Positions 17,485 to 28,669 of a DNA stretch of 64,000 bases are shown here, piece after piece. This stretch comes from Terracidiphilus sp. (GTDB lineage: Bacteria > Acidobacteriota > Terriglobia > Terriglobales > Acidobacteriaceae). Position numbers and translations under genes: made by a program. The DNA is taken from positions 29,920 to 93,919 of the forward strand of contig JBEKNI010000012.1 of the NCBI GenBank assembly GCA_049522975.1, given 5' to 3'. Position 1 is the stretch's first letter; each line of letters starts with the position of its first letter. The notes under the pieces are model-generated. The model made no database searches and was not told the DNA's origin. It was given only the letters and a program-made list of their open reading frames with translations.

Positions 17485-19425
17485 TCAGATGGCCTCTTTC
17501 AATGCCGCCTTGTCTGTCTCCACCTCGCGTTCGTTCAGGTGGTTGTACCAGGTGAACTTCAAAATCACCGAAGTCACCAGAACCACGCCCAGGGCGATGG
17601 TTAAGCGGTCGAACTCCTTGAGCACGATGTACAAGGGCAGCGTAACCAGTGTCACTTGCCAGATGATGCCGATGACAATGTTGAACATGTCGAGGAAGAA
17701 GTCCGTGTTCTTCTTGAACTCCGGCTCTTCGGCTAGAACCTTCTTCAGCACCGGTCCCCAGAATCCCCACGGCCGCACGCGGCGATAGAAGTCCATCAGC
17801 ACTTCATCCGATTCCGGCTGGGTCAGCAGCGTGCCCAGCAGGCAGCCCGCCAACGAAATGGCCACCACCAACGGGAAGATGATCGTTACGGTCATGTTGA
17901 TGGAATAGGTTGCCAGAAGCCACTTCACCCACGGCACATTCGCCATGATCGCAGGCATGGTGAGCGCGGAGGCGATGCCGCTCGCCATTCCCCAGAAGAA
18001 CCCGTAACCGTTAAAGCGCCACCAGTACCACTTCAGCACGTTGGCCGCGGTGTAGCCGCCCCACAGGCCGGAGACGATCCATATCACCACCGAGTTGACC
18101 GAAGTGACATTCCAGCCGATGATCACGCCGACCAGGATCACGGTAAAGGAAGAGAGATAGCTCAGGCGGACGTAGGTTTTCGGCGCCGCATTGGGATTGA
18201 TGTAGCGCTTGTAAATGTCGTTGACAAAGTACGGCGGCGCCGCGTTCACCGTGCCCGCGAAGTTGGACATGAAGGCCGCCAGCAGGCCGGCGATCAGGAA
18301 GCCGAGCAGGCCGGCCGGAACGAATTGACCCAGAGCCATCGGCAGCACCATCTCGAAGTCCAGGTGCGGCATCGAGCGGATGCTGCTGTTGAAATACACC
18401 GCCGCCAGCACGGTAAGCCCGATGACCAGAAAATACCGCGGGAAGGTCAGCACCACATTGACCCAGCCGCTTAGCATCGAGGCCTCGCGGGGATTCTTCG
18501 AGGAGAGCACGGCCTGCATGTCGTAATTCGGAGCCGGGCCGGCGGCCGAGATCAGGATACCCTTGAAGAGCAGCATCATGACAAAGAAGCCGAAGAGGCC
18601 ATACCCATCCTTGGCGATCTGGTCATTGGCGGCCGGAAGCAGCGTTGACCAGTCCAGGCCGATATGCCAGCCGAAAAAGACGTTGTCCCAGCCGGCGGGC
18701 ACCACCTTGTGCAGCGCGTCCGGGGCTACCTTCATCATGGCGATGATGCCCACCGCGAACGATGCGATGGCCAGAATGCAGAATTGCACCACGGCGGTGA
18801 AGACCACGCTGATCATGCCGCCCTTGATCACGTAAATCGATGTGAGGCAGATCAGGACCAGCGCATAAACGTTGGGCGAATCCAGGTGCACCAGCCAGGG
18901 CACGATATGCCCGCCCGAAAGCCCCCAGAGATGAAGCGTGCAGGAAAGATCCCAGGGCAGAAACTCGGCGGCGAATTTGCCGATCCCCTTAAATCCGTAA
19001 GTGAAGAATCCGATGATGCTGACGAAGGCGTAGATCACCACGATCAGGTGCGCCAACTGCGCGCCACGCCCGACGCCGAAGCGCGTCTTCATCCATGCCG
19101 CCCCGGTCATCACATTCGAACGCCGCAGCCACGACGAGAGATAGACCATCTGGAAGATCTGGTTGAAGGTCGGCCAAAGCCAGGGAATCCAGATGCTCTT
19201 CAGCCCGTAGACGAACATCCAGGAGACCAGCAGCATGGTGCCGCTGACATCGAACATCCCCGATGCGTTGGAGACGCCCAGCACATACCAGGGTATTCTG
19301 TTCCCGCCCAGAAAGTAGTTCTGAATGTTCTGCGATGCGCGCTTTGAAACCCAGTAGCCTACCAGCACCATGCTCACCAGGTAGACCAGGATGATAACGA
19401 TGTCAACAACGTGAAGGTGTAACAT
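17485..19425 (-). CDS. Sodium:solute symporter (SSS family), probable oligosaccharide importer
   Basis: YFLGG..IPW, SNASGMFD, many TM helices, GLLAAFMS; glycan-catabolism context. Confidence 0.9.
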   Translation of the reverse strand: MLHLHVVDIVIILVYLVSMVLVGYWVSKRASQNIQNYFLGGNRIPWYVLGVSNASGMFDVSGTMLLVSWMFVYGLKSIWIPWLWPTFNQIFQMVYLSSWLRRSNVMTGAAWMKTRFGVGRGAQLAHLIVVIYAFVSIIGFFTYGFKGIGKFAAEFLPWDLSCTLHLWGLSGGHIVPWLVHLDSPNVYALVLICLTSIYVIKGGMISVVFTAVVQFCILAIASFAVGIIAMMKVAPDALHKVVPAGWDNVFFGWHIGLDWSTLLPAANDQIAKDGYGLFGFFVMMLLFKGILISAAGPAPNYDMQAVLSSKNPREASMLSGWVNVVLTFPRYFLVIGLTVLAAVYFNSSIRSMPHLDFEMVLPMALGQFVPAGLLGFLIAGLLAAFMSNFAGTVNAAPPYFVNDIYKRYINPNAAPKTYVRLSYLSSFTVILVGVIIGWNVTSVNSVVIWIVSGLWGGYTAANVLKWYWWRFNGYGFFWGMASGIASALTMPAIMANVPWVKWLLATYSINMTVTIIFPLVVAISLAGCLLGTLLTQPESDEVLMDFYRRVRPWGFWGPVLKKVLAEEPEFKKNTDFFLDMFNIVIGIIWQVTLVTLPLYIVLKEFDRLTIALGVVLVTSVILKFTWYNHLNEREVETDKAALKEAI

Positions 19426-19566: not shown

Positions 19567-21330
19567 CTAAAGCTCGCCAGCCAACAAGAATACCAGCGAA
19601 GCCTGCCAGTTGATGCAGATTTCGTTGGTCGTATACGAACCAGCCGCATCGGCATAGACCTTGGCCGGCGGCAAGCCCTTGGGCAGCGCATTCGACACCG
19701 AATCGCCGCGCCCCGCATTCGGCCCCCCCGACAGCAACCCCGGCCACGGCCCCGGCTGCTTACCCGATCCGCTCGGCCGGTGATGCGGATGCTGGAACGA
19801 ATGTTCCCCCACATGCGTCACCCACGAAAGCGAAAACGTATTCCGCCCCAGCAGATAATGCAGATTGTCCCGCGCCGCGTCCACGAAGCCGGGGTCCGGC
19901 TGCAACACGTTGGCGATCAGCAGCTCCTCGCCATACTCCGCCGCAATGCCATTCGACCCCCAAACATAATCCTTCGCCTGCAAACTCACATGATAAGGAT
20001 TGGCGCCGGTCCGCTCCACGATCGCGCGCGCCGCCGCCAGGGTCCGCTCCCGGATCGCGGCCGAGGCCCCGGGATCTGCTCCCTTGCGCGCGGAGAGGAC
20101 ATAAGTCCACAGCCCCATCGGCCCCAACGTTCTCCAGTTCTCCGCCGCGGCCGAATCCAGCCAGGGAAGATAATGCGCATAATTCTTCACGAAGAATTCG
20201 TTGTACTCCGCCTCGCCGGTCGTGCGCCAAAGCTCCGCCGCCGCCCACAGCCGCTCGTCCCGGCAGTCCGAATCGGCGTAGATCCCCGTGGCAATCCCTG
20301 GCGGATCCTTGCTGAAGAAAACATTGGGATACTTCTCGGTCCACTCCCAGGCCCGTTGCGCCGCCTCCAGCGCCCGCGCCGCGAACTTCGCATCGTAGGG
20401 CTGGTAGACCCGGGCCGCAATCGCCGCCGCCGCCGCCAGATCCGCGGTTGCGCAGGTGCTCTTGTAAGGCGCCGATCCGGTCCCAACCACCTCAGTGGTT
20501 TCCTTATCGTTCTCCGGTGCAATGAAGCCCTGAAAGTGCGTAGTGGTCTGCTTATGCCACGCGCCCCCATCGGCATCCTGCATCTTCAGCATCCACTCCA
20601 GCTCCCAGCGAGCCTCATTCAGAATGTCCGGCGTGCCGTTGCCCGACTCCGGAATCTTCAGCGAAATCTCCTCGATCTTTTTCCCGTAAATCTCCCAGGT
20701 CCAGAGTAGCGTGCCCACTGTAACTCCGGAGGTCACCATGTAGCGGCCGTAATCCCCCGCATCGTGCCAGCCGCCGGCATTGTCCCATGGCCCCTTGGCG
20801 CCCGAACTCGCGTGGAACTCCCCATGCAGGTGGCAGGCCGGATGCGAGTAGCCGGGAAACTCCGGCCCCATATCCACCGCCGTCCCGCAGCGCTGCCCGT
20901 GAAAGCCGCGCATGGCCATGTAGTAGGTGTGCTCGAAGACATGCGCGCCGATATCGAAATCCCAACTCCGCCCCACTCCGGGAACCTCCAGGTAGTACCG
21001 TCCCGGCTGTTGGAAGGCGGAGAAATCGGCGGTCTGCACCTGATCGCCGGAGTTCGCATCGGTCTCGGCAGGCCCTAGCTTGCCTTTGAAGACCACGGAA
21101 TCATCGCTGGAGCGCCGGACTTCAAAAGCAGTTGCCCGCGCGCTGACCAGCGCCACATTGGGCCCGTCGAGCGGATAGCCCACCTGATCCACCTTGATCG
21201 CTAAACTCGCGGTTGCCGCCCCCTGCGCAAGAGCAACGGGGCAAAACAGAAGGCCGGCCGCAACCACAGACGTCAGCAACTCCCGGCCAGCTTGCACGCT
21301 TCTTGAGGATAAGAACACAGAAAATTCCAT
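19567..21330 (-). CDS. Glycoside hydrolase family 9 with N-terminal Ig-like (CelD-type) domain
   Basis: KVDQVGY, GGWHDAGDYGRY, HPHHRPS, NEICINWQA catalytic motifs. Confidence 0.93.
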   Translation of the reverse strand: MEFSVFLSSRSVQAGRELLTSVVAAGLLFCPVALAQGAATASLAIKVDQVGYPLDGPNVALVSARATAFEVRRSSDDSVVFKGKLGPAETDANSGDQVQTADFSAFQQPGRYYLEVPGVGRSWDFDIGAHVFEHTYYMAMRGFHGQRCGTAVDMGPEFPGYSHPACHLHGEFHASSGAKGPWDNAGGWHDAGDYGRYMVTSGVTVGTLLWTWEIYGKKIEEISLKIPESGNGTPDILNEARWELEWMLKMQDADGGAWHKQTTTHFQGFIAPENDKETTEVVGTGSAPYKSTCATADLAAAAAIAARVYQPYDAKFAARALEAAQRAWEWTEKYPNVFFSKDPPGIATGIYADSDCRDERLWAAAELWRTTGEAEYNEFFVKNYAHYLPWLDSAAAENWRTLGPMGLWTYVLSARKGADPGASAAIRERTLAAARAIVERTGANPYHVSLQAKDYVWGSNGIAAEYGEELLIANVLQPDPGFVDAARDNLHYLLGRNTFSLSWVTHVGEHSFQHPHHRPSGSGKQPGPWPGLLSGGPNAGRGDSVSNALPKGLPPAKVYADAAGSYTTNEICINWQASLVFLLAGEL

Positions 21331-21735: not shown

Positions 21736-24180
21736 ATGAAGTATGGATTTTTCGACGACCAGAAGCGCGAGTACGTGATTACCCAACCCGACACCCCCCT
21801 GCCCTGGATCAATTACCTTGGCTGCCAGGCATATTTCGGCATCATCTCCAACACCGCGGGAGGCTATTCGTTCTATCGCGACGCCCGCCTGCGCCGGCTC
21901 ATCCGCTACCGCTACAACAACGCGCCCTTCGACTTCGGGGGCCGTTACATCTACCTGCGCGACGATGCATCCAAGGAATTCTGGTCCCCCTCCTGGCAGC
22001 CCACCCGCCACGAGCTCAAAGACTACACCTGCCGTCATGGCATGGGCTACACCACCATCGGCTCGGAATACGCCGGCATCGAGGCCCACACCCGCTACTT
22101 CGTGCCCCTCGACGAGAACCTCGAAATCTGGCAGCTCACCGTGACCAACAAGCGGTCAACCAAGGCTTCCATCTCCGCCTTCGCCTCCATTGAATTCTGC
22201 CTCTGGGATGCCCAGGACGACTCCACCAACTTCCAGCGCAACTTCTCCATCGGACAGGTCGAGGTCGAAGACGGCGTCATCTACCACAAGACCGAGTACC
22301 GCGAGCGCCGCGACCACTTTGCCTACTTCGCCACCTCCGCCAAAGGCGGCGCATTCGACACGCAGCGCGACGTCTTCCTCGGCCATTATCGCGGCTGGGA
22401 TTCCCCCGCCACCGTCGAAGCCGGCCAGCTTACCGGCTCCATCGCCCACGGCTGGGCGCCCATCGGCGCGCATCAGGCCAAGCTAGAACTGGCGCCGGGT
22501 GAAACCCGCCAGATCGTCTTCGTCCTCGGCTATCACGAAAATCCCGTGGCCGATAAATTCGACCCTCCCGGCTCGCAGATCGTCAACAAGAAGACGGTCA
22601 AGCCCACCATCGCCAAGTACCTTGACCCCAAGCAAGCCGACGCGGCCTTCGAGAAGCTGCGCCTCTACTGGGACAGCCTGCTCGGCATCTTCCAGGTCGA
22701 TACCCCCGACGTGCACACCAACCGCATGGTCAATATCTGGAATGCCTACCAGTGCATGGCCACCTTTAATATGTCGCGCTCGGCGTCGTTTTATGAGTCC
22801 GGCATCGGCCGCGGCCTGGGCTTCCGCGACTCCAATCAGGACCTGCTCGGCTTTGTCCACATGGCCCCGGCCCGCGCCCGCGAACGCATCGTCGATCTGG
22901 CCGCCACCCAACTGCCCACCGGCGGCGCTTACCACCAGTACCAGCCCCTCACCAAGCGCGGCAACAACGACGTAGGCAGCGGCTTCAACGACGATCCGCA
23001 CTGGCTCATCATCGGCGTCTCCGCCTACATCAAGGAGACCGGCGACTGGGGCATCCTCGACGAACCCGTCCAATACGACAATCAGCCGGGGTCGGAGACC
23101 CCGCTCTACGAGCACCTGCAGCGCAGCTTCCAATACACCCTCGACCGCCTTGGGCCGCATGGCCTTCCGCTCATCGGCCGCGCCGACTGGAACGACTGCC
23201 TCAATCTCAACTGCTTCTCCGACACTCCCGGCCAGAGCTTCCAGACCACCACCAACAAAGACGGCAAGGTAGCCGAATCGGTCTTCATCGCCGGCCTCTT
23301 CGTCCACGCCGGTCAGGAACTAGCCGCAATCGCCAAGCATCGCGGCCTCGATGCCGAGGCGGCAAAGTATCTCGGCGAAGTCGAAAAAATGGATCAGGTC
23401 GTCCGCAAGCATGGTTGGGACGGCGAATGGTTCCTGCGCGCCTACGACGACTTCGGCGCCAAGATCGGCTCCAACGAGTGCGAGGAAGGCAAGATATTCA
23501 TCGAGACCAACGGCTACTGCGTGCTGGCCGGCATCGGCCTCGAAGACGGCCTGGCCGCCAAAGCCCTCGAGTCCACCCGCAAGCATCTGGCCACCAAGCA
23601 CGGCATCGTCCTGCAGCAGCCGGCCTACTCCCGCTACTACCTCAACCTCGGCGAAATCTCCTCTTACCCGCCGGGATACAAGGAGAACGCCGGCATCTTC
23701 TGCCACAACAACCCCTGGGTCATCATCGCCGAGACGCGCCTGGGCCACGGCGACGAGGCGCACGACTACTACAGCCGCATCAACCCCTCGGCCCGCGAAG
23801 AGATCAGCGACCTGCATCGCTGCGAGCCCTACGTCTACGCGCAGATGATCGCCGGCCGCGACGCACCCACCCACGGCGAGGCCAAGAACTCCTGGCTCAC
23901 CGGCACGGCCGCCTGGAACTACTACGCCATCGCGCAGTGGATTCTCGGCATCCGCACCTCGCTAGAGGGCTTGGAAATCGCCCCGGTCATTCCCAAGAGT
24001 TGGCCCGGCTTCACCGCCAGCCGCACCTACCGCGGAGTGGTCTACAAGATCACCATCGAGCGCCAAGGCGACGGCAACCAAATCGCCCTGACGGTAGACG
24101 GCGCGCCAGTAGCCGGCAACGTAGTCCCCCCTCCCACCGACGGAAGAAAGGAAGTAACAGTCAAAGCAATTCTTAGCTAA
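21736..24180 (+). CDS. cbp: GH94 cellobiose phosphorylase
   Basis: MKYGFFDD..REYVIT, NMSRSASFYESGIGRGLGFRDSNQD (cellobiose-phosphorylase type rather than chitobiose type), ADWNDCLN, SWLTGTAAW. Confidence 0.9.
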   Translation: MKYGFFDDQKREYVITQPDTPLPWINYLGCQAYFGIISNTAGGYSFYRDARLRRLIRYRYNNAPFDFGGRYIYLRDDASKEFWSPSWQPTRHELKDYTCRHGMGYTTIGSEYAGIEAHTRYFVPLDENLEIWQLTVTNKRSTKASISAFASIEFCLWDAQDDSTNFQRNFSIGQVEVEDGVIYHKTEYRERRDHFAYFATSAKGGAFDTQRDVFLGHYRGWDSPATVEAGQLTGSIAHGWAPIGAHQAKLELAPGETRQIVFVLGYHENPVADKFDPPGSQIVNKKTVKPTIAKYLDPKQADAAFEKLRLYWDSLLGIFQVDTPDVHTNRMVNIWNAYQCMATFNMSRSASFYESGIGRGLGFRDSNQDLLGFVHMAPARARERIVDLAATQLPTGGAYHQYQPLTKRGNNDVGSGFNDDPHWLIIGVSAYIKETGDWGILDEPVQYDNQPGSETPLYEHLQRSFQYTLDRLGPHGLPLIGRADWNDCLNLNCFSDTPGQSFQTTTNKDGKVAESVFIAGLFVHAGQELAAIAKHRGLDAEAAKYLGEVEKMDQVVRKHGWDGEWFLRAYDDFGAKIGSNECEEGKIFIETNGYCVLAGIGLEDGLAAKALESTRKHLATKHGIVLQQPAYSRYYLNLGEISSYPPGYKENAGIFCHNNPWVIIAETRLGHGDEAHDYYSRINPSAREEISDLHRCEPYVYAQMIAGRDAPTHGEAKNSWLTGTAAWNYYAIAQWILGIRTSLEGLEIAPVIPKSWPGFTASRTYRGVVYKITIERQGDGNQIALTVDGAPVAGNVVPPPTDGRKEVTVKAILS

Positions 24181-24219
24181 CTTTTCTCCGGGTTTTTCGG
24201 GGATCAAACCATAATAACT

Positions 24220-24409
24220 GGGTGGCCCCGGTCCCTCGCCTTTGGGGACCGGGGGGTAAGACTCACATTTCACTGACGACGGATTCACAATTGGAATATC
24301 CTTGCGGCGTATGAGAGGCGAAAGAGGAAGGCAACTGCCCGAGTGGATACGCTACCGGCAGTTGGGCTCCTCCTCCCCGGTCCCCAAAGGCAAGGGACCG
24401 GGGGCACCC
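24220..24409. repeat. REPIN-like inverted doublet of family B REPs
   Basis: 24220-24254 vs reverse complement of 24375-24409 match 33/35. Confidence 0.85.
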
Positions 24410-24449
24410 TCAACTCGTTAATACGCTGTATGAGACCAGGGCCACCCGC

Positions 24450-24542
24450 CTAACCGTGGACGGCGCGCCCGTCGCGGGAAATGTCGTGCCTCCTCCAACA
24501 GACGGAAGGAAGGAAGTTACAGTCAAGGCGATTCTCAGCTAA
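24450..24542 (+). pseudogene. Orphan duplicate of the last 30 codons plus stop of the GH94 gene
   Basis: Encodes LTVDGAPVAGNVVPPPTDGRKEVTVKAILS*, identical to 24088-24180; 18 nt differences, all synonymous third positions. Confidence 0.95.
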
Positions 24543-24546
24543 GGGA

Positions 24547-24700
24547 TTCCCCGGTCCCCAAAGGCGAGGGACCGGGGGCACCCTAAACCTGACAGAATCC
24601 CTTTTGAGACCGGGGCCACCCGCCGGATTCCCCGGTCTCAGACCGAGACCTGGGGCACCCTCCCGCTCATCGCGATAGCGCTGCGATGAACGGGGCACAG
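24547..24700. repeat. Cluster of family B REP hairpins plus a CCCGCTCATCGCG..CGATGAACGGGGCAC repeat
   Basis: The last repeat matches the reverse complement of about 37523-37562. Confidence 0.75.
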
Positions 24701-24758
24701 ATTCAAGACACAGGGTGGTTTTTCGAGTATGATGAGCGGGCCACCTGCCCACCTGCCG

Positions 24759-25280
24759 TCACTTCTTTACGGTTCGTACTGGCAGTGCACGAATGTTGTC
24801 GGAACTGCCGCTGTGGGTGTGGACGGAACTGCCATTGACGAAGACGAAGAAGAATGCCTCGGACGAATTGCCCGTGGTATCTGATGACCAGATAGGATCG
24901 CAGGTGAGCTGGATGAGATTCGTAATGAGACGCAGCGGATATTTTGTATCGCACGGATCTGGTCGCCACTGCCGCCCGGGTTGCCACTGCTCAGCGTCGT
25001 ACAGGCCACTAAGCTCGGATATGGTCGGCATACGCCAATCGGAATACCCACCACCACGATAGCTTTCGGAGTATTTCTTCGCATCGTACCAGTTGATTGT
25101 GCTGCCATTGTCCTTCGCGGCCCACATCAGGCCAGTCTTGGTATCGGTGACTGTCCCGTTCTTATTGTCAACAAATCGCTCGGCGGCGAAACTGCACAGC
25201 CCGAGCACGGATGAAAGAGCCCCTACTAGAAGGAACCGGCGGAGTCTTGACTGCATTGCTGACCTCTCTGAACTTCCCAT
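24759..25280 (-). CDS. Exported DUF1566 (Lcl C-terminal-like) protein
   Basis: Signal peptide; FVDNKNGTVTDTKTGLMW, WYDA, DWRMPTISEL, ALPVR. Confidence 0.88.
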   Translation of the reverse strand: MGSSERSAMQSRLRRFLLVGALSSVLGLCSFAAERFVDNKNGTVTDTKTGLMWAAKDNGSTINWYDAKKYSESYRGGGYSDWRMPTISELSGLYDAEQWQPGRQWRPDPCDTKYPLRLITNLIQLTCDPIWSSDTTGNSSEAFFFVFVNGSSVHTHSGSSDNIRALPVRTVKK

Positions 25281-25379
25281 GGCAGATGGAGTCCGTTGAT
25301 ATAAAGATCAACGGCGTGACCACGCAGGGTCAAACGCATGACGTTGAGGTTTGTAATTGATTGAGGGGAATGTTGGCAG

Positions 25380-25682
25380 ATGATATTTGACAAGTACCAA
25401 GCCCCTCCGAGCCGAGAGGAGCGAGGAGGAGCCAAGCAGGATGCAGAAGAATACCTGCGTCTATGGAAGAAGCGAGCGTTGTATGCGACGGCGGCATTCC
25501 TTCTGAGCTGCGCGTCAGTGTCCGTCTTCTTGGAGGGGCATCCGCTGCACGTTTACTGGGAATCGTTCGGCAAGTACCTGGTGCTTCTTTCGATGGCGTT
25601 ACTGATCCCCTTCGTGATCAGTGTGGGGGTGGCTATCGATTCGTGGTTCTTCCTACGTGCTTTGAGGAAGGACAAACTGTAG
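25380..25682 (+). CDS. Hypothetical membrane protein
   Basis: GAGGGG RBS, two TM segments. Confidence 0.65.
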   Translation: MIFDKYQAPPSREERGGAKQDAEEYLRLWKKRALYATAAFLLSCASVSVFLEGHPLHVYWESFGKYLVLLSMALLIPFVISVGVAIDSWFFLRALRKDKL

Positions 25683-25759
25683 GCGGGGTGGCCACGGTCC
25701 CAATGACCCAATTCATCCATAAAAAGCGGGTGCCTGTCACCGGGTAACCGATGAAGCTT

Positions 25760-26089
25760 TCATTTCGCGCCCGAAGCTCGTTTATACTCATCCGTCTCGC
25801 GGATGGACACGTAACCATCCGGCAACTCATCGCCAGGATCAGGTGCATTTTGGGTTGGCCGGTCCAAGATCGCAAGCGCTCGTGAAATGCGTGCCGCGGT
25901 TGGCTTCGGTCGAGTTGCCAGCCATTCTTCGTGCTGGAGATGCACAACCTTCTCTGCCACGGCAACATTGATGAATTGATTGAGAGAGACACCCTCTTTG
26001 AGCGAAAAATCCTCGGCCGCCCTCCGCACGGAGGGCATGAGCCGGAGCGGGAATTTAGCGACTGCGCTCTTCTTCGAATTAGCTGGCAT
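25760..26089 (-). CDS. Putative antitoxin (RHH/HicB-like DNA-binding)
   Basis: FPLRLMPSVRRAAEDFSLKEGVSLNQFINVAVAEK; start overlaps the PIN gene end. Confidence 0.85.
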   Translation of the reverse strand: MPANSKKSAVAKFPLRLMPSVRRAAEDFSLKEGVSLNQFINVAVAEKVVHLQHEEWLATRPKPTAARISRALAILDRPTQNAPDPGDELPDGYVSIRETDEYKRASGAK

Positions 26090-26528
26090 GAACGGATTCC
26101 ACCTTTCTAAAAGCAATCAAAAAGTCCTTCGGGGTCAACACTGGAATCCCGAACTGTTCCGCCGCCGCCCCAAAATCCTTGATGTTGTTCGTCACAACCG
26201 CATCGGCTTGACCGTGAATCGCAACATCCAGAACCATGTCGTCGTTTTCGTCCTGGGAGAGCGGTCTATGCTTGATCCGCACCAAAACCGGAGCCGCTAT
26301 GGCTTCCAGCATTTCTATGATGGCTTCCGCATCTTCCGATCTTCTCCCGGATGCCGTAATGTGCTGCGGACGCAGAGCCACATCCCGATATTCGCAGACA
26401 AGATTGTAATCCATCAGCAACGTCAGCCTTCCAATCGCTGCTAACCGGACAATTTCAGCGGCAGCCCCAGTGCTTGAACGAATTGCGCTGATTAGGGCTG
26501 CGGTATCGAGTACGACTTTCACAGTCAT
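26079..26528 (-). CDS. PIN-domain putative toxin
   Basis: VVLDTAALISA, DENDDMVLDVA, VTNNIKDF acidic PIN residues. Confidence 0.9.
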   Translation of the reverse strand: MTVKVVLDTAALISAIRSSTGAAAEIVRLAAIGRLTLLMDYNLVCEYRDVALRPQHITASGRRSEDAEAIIEMLEAIAAPVLVRIKHRPLSQDENDDMVLDVAIHGQADAVVTNNIKDFGAAAEQFGIPVLTPKDFLIAFRKVESVHAS

Positions 26529-26721
26529 ATGATACCACAGGTGACCCCATCCTTGGCGCTGTTCGGCAGGTGCCCCCTGTCCCTCGCTTTTTGGGACACG
26601 GATGGAAGCGCCACGCTGCCCAAACCGCCGCCCGCCGGTGATCGGTCAGCACTTTCTTTTTGCCGAGAATACGGATAGTATGTATTTATATGTATCGTTG
26701 CGCATTTCCTTTGGGTGAGGT

Positions 26722-26979
26722 ATGAAAATGCAGGTCATTAGCGCCTCCGATCTGGCACGCAACACGAGCGCCATCCTGGAACGCATTCTCACGGGCGAAA
26801 CGGTCCGTGTGATGCGGAATCGCACTGAAATAGCCCATATTGTTCCCGCGAAGCGAACCATGACCGCTGCGCAAGCCATCGCTGGCCTGGAAGGAAAGTT
26901 AACTCCTGCCCAGAGCGATTCCTGGCTCAAGGACAGCCGTGGAGACTTCGATGAAGAGGTTCTGAATCCGTGGGGATGA
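26722..26979 (+). CDS. Phd/YefM-family antitoxin
   Basis: ISASDLARN..ILERI..GETVRVMRN..IAHIVP. Confidence 0.85.
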   Translation: MKMQVISASDLARNTSAILERILTGETVRVMRNRTEIAHIVPAKRTMTAAQAIAGLEGKLTPAQSDSWLKDSRGDFDEEVLNPWG

Positions 26980-27374
26980 TCTTCGACACTTCTATCTGGG
27001 TAGGGCTGGCCAGCGGGCAAATGCTCAGTCAGGCCGTACTCAACGCTGCCGGAGACGAGCAGGTCTACATTTCAGCCATTTCGCTCGGAGAGTTGAGCTT
27101 TGGCGTCGAATCGTGCGGCGATCCGGCAACACGGATGCTGCGCAACCGCTACCTGCGCAGTTTGGAACAGCGGCCCGTTCTCGATGTTACTTCCCTAACT
27201 GCCTCCGCCTTCGGCATCCTGGCTGCCTTCATGAAGCAGTCGGGCCGGTCACCGAGAACACGGGTCAACGACATCTGGATAGCTGCCCAGGCAATGGAGA
27301 ATGACTATGCTCTATTAACCGCTAACCTCAAGGATTTTGAGGGCCTCCCTGGCTTGCGAGTCTCTTGTCCGTGA
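26976..27374 (+). CDS. vapC: VapC-like PIN ribonuclease toxin
   Basis: IFDTSIW, ISAISLGEL, NDIWIAAQA, LTANLKDF; ATGA overlap with the antitoxin. Confidence 0.9.
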   Translation: MIFDTSIWVGLASGQMLSQAVLNAAGDEQVYISAISLGELSFGVESCGDPATRMLRNRYLRSLEQRPVLDVTSLTASAFGILAAFMKQSGRSPRTRVNDIWIAAQAMENDYALLTANLKDFEGLPGLRVSCP

Positions 27375-27391
27375 ATAGCTGGACTGCCGGC

Positions 27392-27466
27392 CTCCCCGGT
27401 CCCCAAAAGCGAGGGACCGGGGGCACCCATGACTTGTTAGAACGCTGTATGAGACCAAGCCCACCC
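27392..27466. repeat. 75-bp direct repeat of 24373-24447
   Basis: 65/75 identity, including the non-palindromic spacer ACGCTGTATGAGACCA. Confidence 0.85.
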
Positions 27467-27613
27467 GGCCCAGGTCTGACCATCCTCAAACTAGGCACCT
27501 AATGTCTTGACACTGATGGATGGATTTTTCGCTCCCGAGGCCAGAGGCGTAGAATCGCTGTTAGCGCGAATTCTGTGTCCGTCACGGCGCGTCGAAGTTT
27601 ACGGAGCATCCCT

Positions 27614-28669
27614 TTGTACATCGCCAGCGAACAGCGTTACGACACCATACAATACCGCCGCTCGGGCAAGAGCGGCCTGCGCCTGCCGGCCATCTCCCTC
27701 GGCCTCTGGCACAACTTCGGCGGCGTCGACGCCTTCGAGAACAGCCGCGCCATGGTCCGCCGGGCCTTCGATCTGGGCATCACCCACTTCGATCTGGCCA
27801 ACAACTACGGCCCTCCCCCCGGCAGTGCCGAGTCGAACTTCGGCGAGATTCTCCGCCTCGACCTCAAGCCGCACCGCGACGAGCTGATCGTCAGCACCAA
27901 GGCCGGCTATACCATGTGGGACGGCCCTTACGGCGACTGGGGATCGCGCAAGTACCTATTGGCGAGTCTGGATCAGAGCCTGAAGCGCATGGGCCTGGAG
28001 TACGTGGACATCTTCTACTCCCATCGCCCCGATCCGAATACCCCCATCGAGGAGACCATGGCCGCCCTCGATCAGGCGGTCCGCTCCGGCAAGGCCCTCT
28101 ACGCCGGCATCTCCAACTACGATCCGGCCCAGACCGCCGCCGCCGTCCGAACCCTGCGCATCTGCGGCACAACCTGCCTCATCCACCAGCCCAAGTACTC
28201 CATGTTCAATCGCTGGGTCGAGAATGGCCTGCTGGACGTGCTGGGCGAAGAGGGCGTCGGCGCCATAGCCTTCTGTCCGCTGGCCCAGGGCCTGCTCACC
28301 GACCGCTATCTGAAAGGCATCCCGGAGGGCTCGCGCGCCTCCAAGCCGCACGGCTTCCTCAAGAAGAACGACATCGACGAGCATCGCCTAATTCAGATTG
28401 GCGCATTGAACGAGATCGCCGCCGGGCGCGGCCAGTCGCTGGCGCAGATGGCCCTGGCCTGGGTGCTGCGCGACCCCCGGATGACTTCGGCCCTGATCGG
28501 GGCCAGCCGCGTCGAGCAGATCGAGCAGAATGTAGCCGCGCTCGCCAACCTCAGCTTCACCGCCGCGGAGTTGACCCGTATCGACGCGATTCTGAACCGC
28601 ACCGCCGACAATGCGGCCGCCGTAGCCGATGCGGGAGCACCAGCTACGGCGCAGTATCGTCTGGCTTAA
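27614..28669 (+). CDS. gpr: Aldo/keto reductase, L-glyceraldehyde 3-phosphate reductase type
   Basis: YRRSGKSGLRLPAISLGLWHNFG, FDLANNYGPPPGSAE, STKAGY; TTG start with GGAG RBS. Confidence 0.9.
   Translation: MYIASEQRYDTIQYRRSGKSGLRLPAISLGLWHNFGGVDAFENSRAMVRRAFDLGITHFDLANNYGPPPGSAESNFGEILRLDLKPHRDELIVSTKAGYTMWDGPYGDWGSRKYLLASLDQSLKRMGLEYVDIFYSHRPDPNTPIEETMAALDQAVRSGKALYAGISNYDPAQTAAAVRTLRICGTTCLIHQPKYSMFNRWVENGLLDVLGEEGVGAIAFCPLAQGLLTDRYLKGIPEGSRASKPHGFLKKNDIDEHRLIQIGALNEIAAGRGQSLAQMALAWVLRDPRMTSALIGASRVEQIEQNVAALANLSFTAAELTRIDAILNRTADNAAAVADAGAPATAQYRLA

Follow-up and report, generated by a model that had tools for sequence, protein, structure and literature searches.

Why should an intact gene be followed by a second copy of its own 3' end, which encodes the same peptide in different codons? 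The question is raised by a cellobiose phosphorylase gene of family GH94 (21736..24180, + strand; an intact ORF of 814 amino acids, recognized by homologues named cellobiose phosphorylase, with PF06165 and PF17167). The gene lies in a 64,000-nt stretch of DNA (the window, to which all coordinates without a contig name refer) from Terracidiphilus sp., a peat acidobacterium whose genome (G000) is a 99-contig MAG. A preliminary description of the window, made from the sequence alone, had pointed out the duplicated gene end and offered two explanations: displacement by a divergent allele, or an integrative element of prophage type that restores the gene with a recoded tail.

The two ends of the GH94 gene

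Tail A (24088..24180, +), delimited by sequence comparison, comprises the last 30 codons and the stop codon in use by the gene. Tail B (24450..24542, +) is an orphan copy of 30 codons and a stop codon, and it starts on the last base of a REP unit. Both are translated as LTVDGAPVAGNVVPPPTDGRKEVTVKAILS*, i.e. 30 residues and a stop, and they differ at 18 of 93 nt, every difference being synonymous and at codon position 3 (pS 0.72, pN 0), exactly as first described. None of the 65 non-synonymous sites is changed. If differences fell randomly over the codon positions, all 18 would be found at position 3 with a probability of (1/3)^18 = 2.6e-9. Mismatches begin at base 3 of the alignment, and no identical run exceeds 11 nt, the longest one being internal. 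The two tails are the sole copies in the whole 4.59-Mb genome. A paralogue was considered as the source of the orphan and rejected, the other GH94 genes (on contigs C24 and C3) being merely 35–39% identical.

Tail B lies within no start-codon ORF of at least 30 amino acids and hence cannot be translated by itself. Because the differences are 18 synonymous to 0 non-synonymous while the orphan is untranslatable, the divergence of A and B predates their juxtaposition. Divergence in place is contradicted as well, since an unselected orphan would carry many changes at non-synonymous sites, and it has 0 of 65. The earlier suggestion of long purifying selection, with the orphan a working gene end until recently, is thereby upheld, provided that the end is allowed to have worked in some lineage.

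Orthologues of the gene in seven congeners share 80–87% protein identity. In the tails of the closest relatives, one residue change accompanies 12–15 synonymous changes; the peptide is kept across the clade, and in tails A and B alike the consensus peptide is retained, while synonymous sites turn over fast. Since relatives' tails change about one residue per 12–15 synonymous differences, 0 residue changes for 18 differences is unremarkable, and the recoding that had been proposed loses its basis. Because the peptide is conserved while synonymous sites turn over fast, tails A and B are ordinary alleles of two diverged Terracidiphilus lineages, with no special recoding.

The low GC3 of the tails that had been noticed (16/30 and 18/30, vs 0.74–0.96 along the gene body) is genuine and is common to all relatives (18–20/30). 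In its first half, tail A is like L012 and L013, the closest relatives. Seven unique synonymous GC-to-AT changes fall within its last 37 nt, and GC3 in its last 15 codons is 0.33 vs 0.73 in the relatives. Compared tail by tail, as had been recommended, tail B is closer than tail A to every relative except G024, from which each tail has 30 differences. The closest relatives differ from tail B at 13–15 sites and from tail A at 16–17, and G018 differs at 18 and 24 respectively. In a test for one crossover within the tail, a chimera of bases 1–42 of tail A and bases 43–93 of tail B brought the distance to L012 down to 10 from 15–17. As the breakpoint was chosen by scanning and the informative sites number 18, this result is not decisive.

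The REP/RAYT element and the downstream islet

The GH94 stop codon is followed by a 39-nt spacer (24181..24219, +), the first 13 nt of which are identical to those of L012 and L014. The spacer is homologous to the 38-nt spacer after GH94 in L013, which leads into a full RAYT element. Here it leads into an internally deleted RAYT element of 231 nt (24220..24450, +), RAYT being a Y1 transposase of the IS200-like type. This element consists of an inverted left REP hairpin (24220-24254), a 106-nt core between the REP arms with a RAYT 3' remnant, recognized by homology to a RAYT end on contig C14, and a right REP unit (24374-24450, +), whose end, ...GGGCCACCCGCC, stands directly against the orphan. 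The inverted arms (24220-24261 and 24368-24409) are 88% complementary. Full-length relatives of the element are found at C34:26491-26741 and C7:11457-11636, and homology connects its 3' half with the terminal part of the C14 RAYT gene and with the right REP unit there. The C14 gene (C14:50622-51287), which matches Y1_Tnp with 27.1 bits (cut-off 23), has the same REPs on its flanks. In total, 17 full right units and 36 hairpins of this REP family occur in the genome, and 34 of 61 congeners carry the REP end motif, for which the control gave 0 hits. With its inverted hairpins, its multiple copies and a cognate Y1 transposase, 24220-24450 is classed from sequence as a REP/RAYT (REPIN-type) element, the mobility of which is predicted only.

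As in described REPIN-RAYT systems (PMC3116915, PMC3337134, PMC2817692), a Y1 transposase gene lies between inverted REP hairpins, non-autonomous derivatives occur in many copies, and the elements are extragenic, at gene 3' ends. At least four RAYT homologues are present in this genome, in contrast to those systems, for which one RAYT copy is described as typical. The capture or abutment of a gene 3' end at a REP terminus is also absent from a REPIN review.

The orphan does start exactly at the REP end, as the preliminary description stated. The CGCC microhomology given there did not hold up: the CGCC of the gene is one base offset from that of the REP end, and only 'CC' is shared in register. 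REPs on both sides of the orphan were confirmed. One precedes it at 24374-24450, an inverted one lies at 24220-24261, and another REP unit (24548..24624, +; 82% identical to 24374-24450) begins 5 nt past the orphan stop codon. The latter is followed by a REP hairpin of a second type (24625..24662, +; CCCCGGTCTC...GAGACCTGGGG), such as flanks the RAYT genes of L013 and C34.

Beyond it lies a variable islet. Its first gene encodes an Lcl_C-domain protein (24759..25280, −; PF07603), and a PIN_3 toxin gene (26079..26528, −) and a PIN toxin gene (26970..27374, +) were recognized with Pfam. The islet is closed by a REP unit (27391..27467, +) in direct orientation with 24374-24450 and 86–87% identical to it. 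The next gene, an aldo/keto reductase gene (27575..28669, +; Pfam), directly follows GH94 in the congeners G024, G011 and G002. The 3' flank of GH94 borders a variable islet and, in several species, serves as a REP/RAYT site. No known RNA was found with Rfam in 23500-28000 or at the C34 locus described below, and no tRNA was found in the intergenic DNA searched.

The same architecture at other loci

REP-associated capture of gene ends had been thought unusual; the recommended search for other duplicates beside REP ends found further such loci. On contig C34 of the same genome, 150 coding nt of a uracil-DNA glycosylase (UDG) gene are duplicated with 17 differences (1, 0 and 16 at codon positions 1, 2 and 3) and 0 of 50 residues changed, and the joint is present in a unitig of run X2. 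A further 510 nt downstream of UDG are also duplicated; they belong mostly to a dispersed repeat family, and about 229 nt are specifically allelic. The C34 joint '1610 to 2312' was considered as an allele without the orphan and rejected, since it represents a related locus on contig C65. In a congener (G009, locus L072), 312 nt of a 2-oxoacid dehydrogenase E1 gene tail are duplicated with 8, 2 and 31 differences at the three codon positions and 11 of 104 residues changed. A DUF2204 gene and a REP lie between these copies, and the orphan keeps the gene's own terminator. Der gene tails in the congener G068 are arranged in the same way, and in G067, another congener, a 108-nt non-coding flank, which is in no ORF, is duplicated against a REP end. 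The gene-end orphans of three loci look selected.

Microhomology in register is 2 nt at the GH94 joint and 1–4 nt at the five other loci, mostly 1–2 nt. Four of six loci have a CGCC or GC motif resembling the REP terminus no more than 1 nt from the copy-1 breakpoint. The six have no motif in common in register, however, and the idea that a specific sequence is cut in the gene was rejected. Random positions, taken as a control for the REP-end scan, came from those same repeat-rich loci, which confounded the comparison; the argument rests instead on the exact coincidence of duplication boundary and REP terminus. In three or four genomes, several loci independently place a displaced copy of nearby sequence precisely against the 3' terminus of a REP unit.

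Origin of the orphan end

On balance, the evidence leans towards the orphan being the displaced 3' end of GH94, left as a scar of recombination with a related Terracidiphilus lineage, with the 3' end of a REP unit as the illegitimate joint. Homology would have paired one side of the incoming DNA from that lineage, and the opposite side, the REP 3' end (the right end of the RAYT-deleted element), would have been joined illegitimately 93 nt ahead of the resident stop codon. The outcome would be diverged alleles in tandem, in the order gene body, tail A, spacer, REP element and tail B, with GH94 intact and using tail A, and with tail B a young, unselected remnant. By analogy with L072, where it is the orphan that retains the gene's own terminator, the tail A block is suggested to be incoming and tail B resident. 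A cut in single-stranded DNA, made at the REP end by RAYT or by a nuclease specific for REPs, may be the reason why the donor DNA stopped at that point.

Of the two explanations first offered, displacement by a divergent allele fits best. The recommended scan along the gene revealed a mosaic of co-occurring lineages, in which identity between G000 and L012 ranges from 81% to 100%; at about 23500, P0004 switches from identity with P0003 to identity with P0002. Changes specific to G000 climb toward the tail from 1.0 through 5.2 to 8.6 per 100 nt.

Homology-facilitated illegitimate recombination is known from Acinetobacter, Pseudomonas stutzeri and pneumococcus, and also from E. coli conjugation (PMC3240628). 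Similarly, it combines an anchor of homology on one side with a nearby illegitimate join, and extra or duplicated sequence may result. It differs in that the illegitimate partner here is, time and again, precisely the 3' terminus of a REP unit, and the microhomology of 1–4 nt is weaker than the typical extent of about 3–10 nt, which counts against a recombination scar. Several other findings do so too. Two derived synonymous states (GGA AGR) are common to tails A and B and occur in no relative, a hint that they are related more closely, or in a less straightforward way, than a donor and a recipient would be. Among relatives, the copies of REP-flanked duplications are between 100% and 80% identical, a spread that could instead have come from duplication in place and subsequent divergence or overwriting by another allele. 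No donor lineage or empty-site allele was found in the metagenome runs, where exact tail B occurs in the orphan context only; a scan of metagenome contigs for a donor yielded one contig, of the same species, and exact-protein look-ups of the islet genes led to the same species again. In the merodiploid model, a duplication is reportedly joined at a repeated element and made of identical recipient copies, unlike the diverged alleles here, which are joined at the end of the repeat and not inside it. That partial duplications arise by genetic exchange is reported for transformation-generated merodiploids bridged by repeats (PMC3784515).

The recurrence of this architecture offers a concrete connection, accessible to testing, between REP ends and joints of diverged DNA beside core genes, and it bears on the benefit or harm of REPs and domesticated RAYT transposases to their hosts. 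An orphan gene tail after a REP end is also a simple sequence signature for finding such events in other genomes. Even if the joint were only a fragile site, these loci would remain clean, natural, one-sided recombination scars between lineages of an uncultured soil bacterium.

It is possible, though rather unlikely, that the REP/RAYTs of Terracidiphilus take an active part in gene flow, the REP 3' end, cut by RAYT in single-stranded DNA, being the fixed terminus of mobile cassettes made of a replacement gene tail, cargo and a REP unit. With RAYT cutting at the REP end and at a surrogate site in the gene, a cassette captured from one lineage could enter the homologous gene of a second lineage and leave it again, the process being reversible. 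The two tails would alternate as the functional gene end, and selection would preserve each of them. The recurrence of the architecture agrees with this, with the REP end as a constant right boundary, a gene tail on the left, and nothing, ORF121 or the DUF2204 gene as cargo. So do the apparently selected orphans (0/30, 0/50 and 11/104 residue changes, with third-position bias), the CGCC or GC motif near four of six copy-1 breakpoints and the RAYT genes of the genome. However, the joint expected of an empty site (gene body to tail B, ...CAAATCGCC followed by CTAACCGTGG) and that of a circle (REP end to tail A start, ...CCACCCGCC followed by CTGACGGTAG) were in none of the runs searched. In addition, no exact motif recurs in register among the left breakpoints, the repeated block at C34 is largely dispersed repeat and not cargo, and insertion at the homologous position of a homologous gene needs homology, not a 4-nt target. 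The REPIN review describes no flank capture.

One-ended transposition by IS91/ISCR and the capture of gene fragments by Helitrons are carried out by Y2 rolling-circle HUH enzymes. These elements likewise have one fixed terminus and a variable boundary in host DNA, and they mobilize gene fragments. Flank capture of this kind is known neither for Y1 RAYTs nor for IS200/IS605-type enzymes, which counts against mobile cassettes. If such cassettes were real, they would be a bacterial Y1-transposase counterpart of Helitron and IS91 flank capture and would give REPs a role in acquiring islets.

Tandem duplication in place, from a point in the gene to a REP end, with copies identical at birth and one later overwritten by an allele from another lineage, is judged improbable. 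Young cases in relatives argue for it, namely a perfect 452-nt tandem at REP ends (L092) and others of 93.5% (L133) and 87% (L094), as does the frequent recombination between lineages in GH94. However, the L092 tandem contains no gene tail, and its opposite strand, compared by eye with the RAYT of L013, reads like part of a RAYT gene. Two events would be required per locus, and the first unit (spacer, inverted REP, RAYT remnant and REP) differs in structure from the second (5 nt and REP). Simple duplication in place, without overwriting, would be expected to leave differences over all codon positions, and 18 of 18 are synonymous third-position differences.

Phage 21 and e14 integrate in icd, bring an alternative 3' end and leave an orphan fragment. 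As at GH94, the gene stays intact by means of a replacement 3' end with mostly synonymous changes, and the native end is orphaned downstream. A remnant of such a prophage or integrative element, since deleted to about 270 bp, is very improbable here, since no integrase, att core or prophage was found and a 231-nt REP/RAYT derivative lies between the copies. No integrase or phage gene occurs in 24181-27500, and no integrase or recombinase is found among the ORFs of 24181-28669, in which Lcl_C, PIN_3, PIN and Aldo_ket_red are the only Pfam matches. The repeat boundaries share no identical att core (the longest common run being the internal one of 11 nt), the intervening DNA is wholly explained as a spacer and a multi-copy REP/RAYT family member, and the other loci have REP ends, not att sites.

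A chimeric assembly, in which two strains were joined at REP repeats, had been named as the outcome that would overturn the description, and it is hardly credible, even for a MAG in 99 contigs and with unitigs that break within REP cores: the REP–tail B joint, which has no k-mer common with a gene body, recurs unchanged, with 0 differences, in Logan unitigs of at least eight peat and wetland metagenomes (runs from 2017 to 2025). The unitig 24225-24576, which comprises REP, the unique 106 nt, REP, orphan and REP, shows 0 differences in runs X1, X2 and X3, and read-sized contigs span the joint in X7, X12, X14, X21 and X22. Linkage across the 35-nt REP cores, where the k=31 unitigs break, rests on JGI assemblies. 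Contig Ga0427944_0000094 (102,761 nt) encodes an identical GH94 protein and has the same gene order down to the aldo/keto reductase gene; it is not counted as independent because it may be the MAG's own source contig. Contig Ga0187847_10038463, from a different sample, is colinear with 23945-26550 at 99.9%, across both tails. The three unitigs of the locus are alike in depth. The arrangement is no assembly error, and the REP–orphan joint, present in at least eight runs and two assemblies (one of them possibly the source of the MAG), is fixed in the population.

The two ends of the GH94 gene

The GH94 open reading frame (21736-24180, 814 aa) has homologues named cellobiose phosphorylase that carry PF06165 and PF17167. 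Its last 93 nt, tail A (24088-24180), encode LTVDGAPVAGNVVPPPTDGRKEVTVKAILS*, and the orphan tail B (24450-24542) encodes the same sequence outside every ORF with a start codon. These are the sole copies in the genome (4.59 Mb, 99 contigs). Judging by named homologues, the organism belongs to Terracidiphilus. As the preliminary description had claimed, the tails are protein-identical and differ at 18 bases, every one third-position and synonymous (pS 0.72, pN 0 by the Nei-Gojobori method).

Only one tail was found in each of seven congeners and in the three closest metagenome relatives (loci L012, L013 and L014), which have 86–89% nucleotide identity to GH94 over the gene. The tails of these three loci differ from tails A and B at 13–17 nt but in just one residue; the L012 tail is 14 nt and two residues away from that of L013. 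From these alignments, the tail peptide is conserved in the clade with fast synonymous turnover, and both tails keep the consensus peptide. Given such conservation and turnover, the lack of residue changes alongside 18 synonymous differences is unremarkable. The recoded replacement tail proposed earlier requires no special recoding, as relatives' tails show like synonymous-rich divergence. Divergence after juxtaposition would have altered many non-synonymous sites of an unselected orphan; none of the 65 such sites in tail B has changed, so the divergence is placed earlier. This upholds the earlier view that the orphan was a working gene end until recently. Tails A and B diverged as working gene ends of separate lineages and were joined recently.

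Tail B is closer than tail A to all relatives except the congener G024, from which each differs at 30 positions. Seven synonymous GC-to-AT changes are unique to tail A; they fall in a stretch of 31 nt inside its last 37 nt, with L012-identical sequence on either side. These lineage-specific changes account for the low GC3 (0.33, versus 0.73 in the closest relatives) of the working gene's final 15 codons (24136-24180). GGA AGR codons are common to both tails and absent from every relative. The gene is also visibly mosaic. Identity to L012 is 98–100% at 23581-23895, then 81–91% downstream. Among the metagenome GH94 proteins of L012, L013 and L014, P0004 is the same as P0003 until about 23500 and the same as P0002 thereafter, with the switch at about 23491-23536 (gene nt about 1756-1800). 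Behind this switch lies either a very recent exchange between lineages within GH94 or chimeric assembly of the metagenome contig.

The REP element and the islet

A 39-nt spacer directly follows tail A and shows homology with the sequence around the gene ends of L012, L014 and L013; its first 13 nt are the same in L012 and L014. The adjoining 231-nt element (24220-24450) opens with an inverted REP hairpin, continues with a core of 106 nt and closes with a right REP unit of 77 nt ending GGGCCACCCGCC. Contigs C34 and C7 carry full-length relatives of this element. The 3' half of the element shows homology both to the final part of an ORF of 221 aa on contig C14 and to the REP unit after that ORF. 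The C14 ORF has a match to Y1_Tnp, and the same REPs flank it. By this homology, the element is a REP-associated Y1 transposase (RAYT) element with an internal deletion. In L013, the equivalent place, 38 nt past the stop codon, is occupied by a RAYT element that is intact and belongs to a sister family. The genome has 36 hairpins of the REP family, along with 17 full right units; the terminal motif of the family is present in 34 of the 61 congeners, and controls gave no hits. The genome also contains at least four RAYT (Y1_Tnp-like) homologues (C14, C34, C20) that share 43–60% identity with the L013 RAYT, besides at least two types of REP hairpin. RAYTs are usually described as single-copy. 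An aldo/keto reductase gene directly follows GH94 in the congeners G024, G011 and G002; thus, 24181-27500, closed by a REP unit at 27391-27467, is a variable islet.

Reads from the runs containing the stretch, which are peat and wetland metagenomes, bear out the assembly. Logan unitigs (runs X1, X2, X3) match 23880-24249, 24225-24576 and 24555-25100+ with no differences and at similar depth. The middle unitig runs from a REP through 106 unique nt and a second REP into tail B and reaches the beginning of the following REP, so the REP/tail B joint is present in reads. This joint is also crossed by read-sized contigs in X7, X12, X14, X21 and X22. The unitigs break within the 35-nt REP cores, and linkage over the cores therefore rests on JGI assemblies. 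Contig Ga0187847_10038463, from a different sample, matches 23945-26550 colinearly at 99.9%. Ga0427944_0000094 encodes an identical GH94 protein in the same gene order; given its length of 102,761 nt, against 102,649 nt for C12, it may be the source contig of the metagenome-assembled genome itself.

A metatranscriptome contig (run X5) spans 24228-24486, the REP element and orphan start, with no differences. It suggests that transcription reads through the 3' region of GH94, though it may instead stem from DNA carry-over. One strain matches the window at 99.9% and departs from it abruptly at 26550, just beyond the PIN_3 gene. The departing sequence (L015:1-192) carries a tRNA-like 3' end (GGTTCGAATCCC...CCA), and the break looks like a strain-level rearrangement within the islet.

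Duplicated sequence at other loci

Each ORF tail in the genome was compared with its own 2-kb downstream flank. A search for other synonymous-only 3' duplicates beside the REP had been suggested earlier, and a second case was found at the UDG (uracil-DNA glycosylase) gene (Pfam) on contig C34 (L016:3949-4948, minus strand). The gene-end copy lies at L016:3439-4101, and the orphan block (L016:1605-2311), 1789 nt further on, comprises the last 150 coding nt and downstream sequence. The copies have 17 differences (1, 0 and 16 at codon positions 1, 2 and 3), with 0 of 50 residues changed. The orphan begins exactly past a REP unit ending GGGGCCACCCGCC, and its joint was found in an X2 unitig. The block is bracketed by identical 78-nt REP units, with a RAYT gene 0.4 kb off. 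The co-duplicated downstream DNA is largely a dispersed repeat, so that about 229 nt are specifically allelic. Copies of this ~450–550-nt repeat, 82–92% identical, occur at L016:1605-2043, L016:3346-3825, C65:431-988 and on about 20 other contigs; they contain a G-run and GGGAC(N)AGGGAC repeats and had no Rfam match. On contig C13, the Der (EngA) GTPase 3' end and an orphan (reverse-complement 19165-19350 and 20313-20496) are 83% identical. This orphan is decayed by a 2-nt deletion (frameshift) and residue changes, a class-3 lipase gene (lipase_3) in the opposite orientation has been inserted to separate it from the gene, and no REP is present at the orphan joint.

Five of 110 REP termini fetched from congeners adjoin a copy of nearby upstream sequence. 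At L072 (G009), a 312-nt tail of a 2-oxoacid dehydrogenase E1 gene has 41 differences (8, 2 and 31 by codon position), with 11 of 104 residues changed, mostly conservatively. The copies are separated by a DUF2204 gene and a REP. The orphan retains the gene's terminator-like hairpin, and the insert therefore looks like a block of replacement tail, cargo and REP. At L094 and L095 (G068), a Der tail, a spacer and a REP form a unit that is repeated in tandem, and L133 (G067) has a 108-nt flank at 93.5%. L092:4566-5468 (G068, contig C16) is a perfect 452-nt tandem with each unit ending at a REP terminus; it is either an artefact of assembly or a REP-end duplication of very recent date. Compared by eye with the L013 RAYT, the opposite strand of the L092 repeat resembles a portion of a RAYT gene (FNVWTEEKRVEKL). 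Among six loci, the gene-side breakpoints share no motif in register. Their microhomology with the REP terminus is 1–4 nt, and four of the six have a CGCC no more than 1 nt from the breakpoint.

Origin of the joints

Common to the loci is one illegitimate joint of an exact REP-unit 3' end to an arbitrary point near a core-gene end, and diverged alleles of the gene end stand on both sides of such joints. The orphan is taken as a scar left when diverged alleles recombined. The incoming DNA would pair by homology on one side and the REP end would be joined nearby, duplicating the segment from the joint to the end of homology. At GH94, we infer by analogy with L072 that tail A, the spacer and the element probably came in and that tail B was resident. 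Two rival explanations remain: a mobile, reversibly excising cassette with selection keeping both tails, and a REP-linked tandem duplication that formed in place, one copy being overwritten later by another allele. The evidence is against an integrase element, the shrunken integrative element or prophage of the preliminary description, as no integrase is present between GH94 and the reductase gene at 27575, where the ORFs are Lcl_C, PIN_3 and PIN, and the intervening element is a RAYT-deleted REP element.

Prophages integrate into icd, bringing a replacement 3' end, and this is among the processes closest to recombination between diverged alleles at a REP end. Others are homology-facilitated illegitimate recombination (PMC3240628), repeat-bridged merodiploids arising in transformation (PMC3784515) and REPIN-RAYT biology (PMC3116915, PMC3337134, PMC2817692). 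Gene ends adjoining REP termini are not described in the REPIN review consulted. The orphan tail by itself is an ordinary recombination scar; the part worth pursuing is the repeated use of the REP terminus as a joint. RAYTs act on single-stranded REP DNA, and it is an attractive idea that a RAYT might create the REP end.
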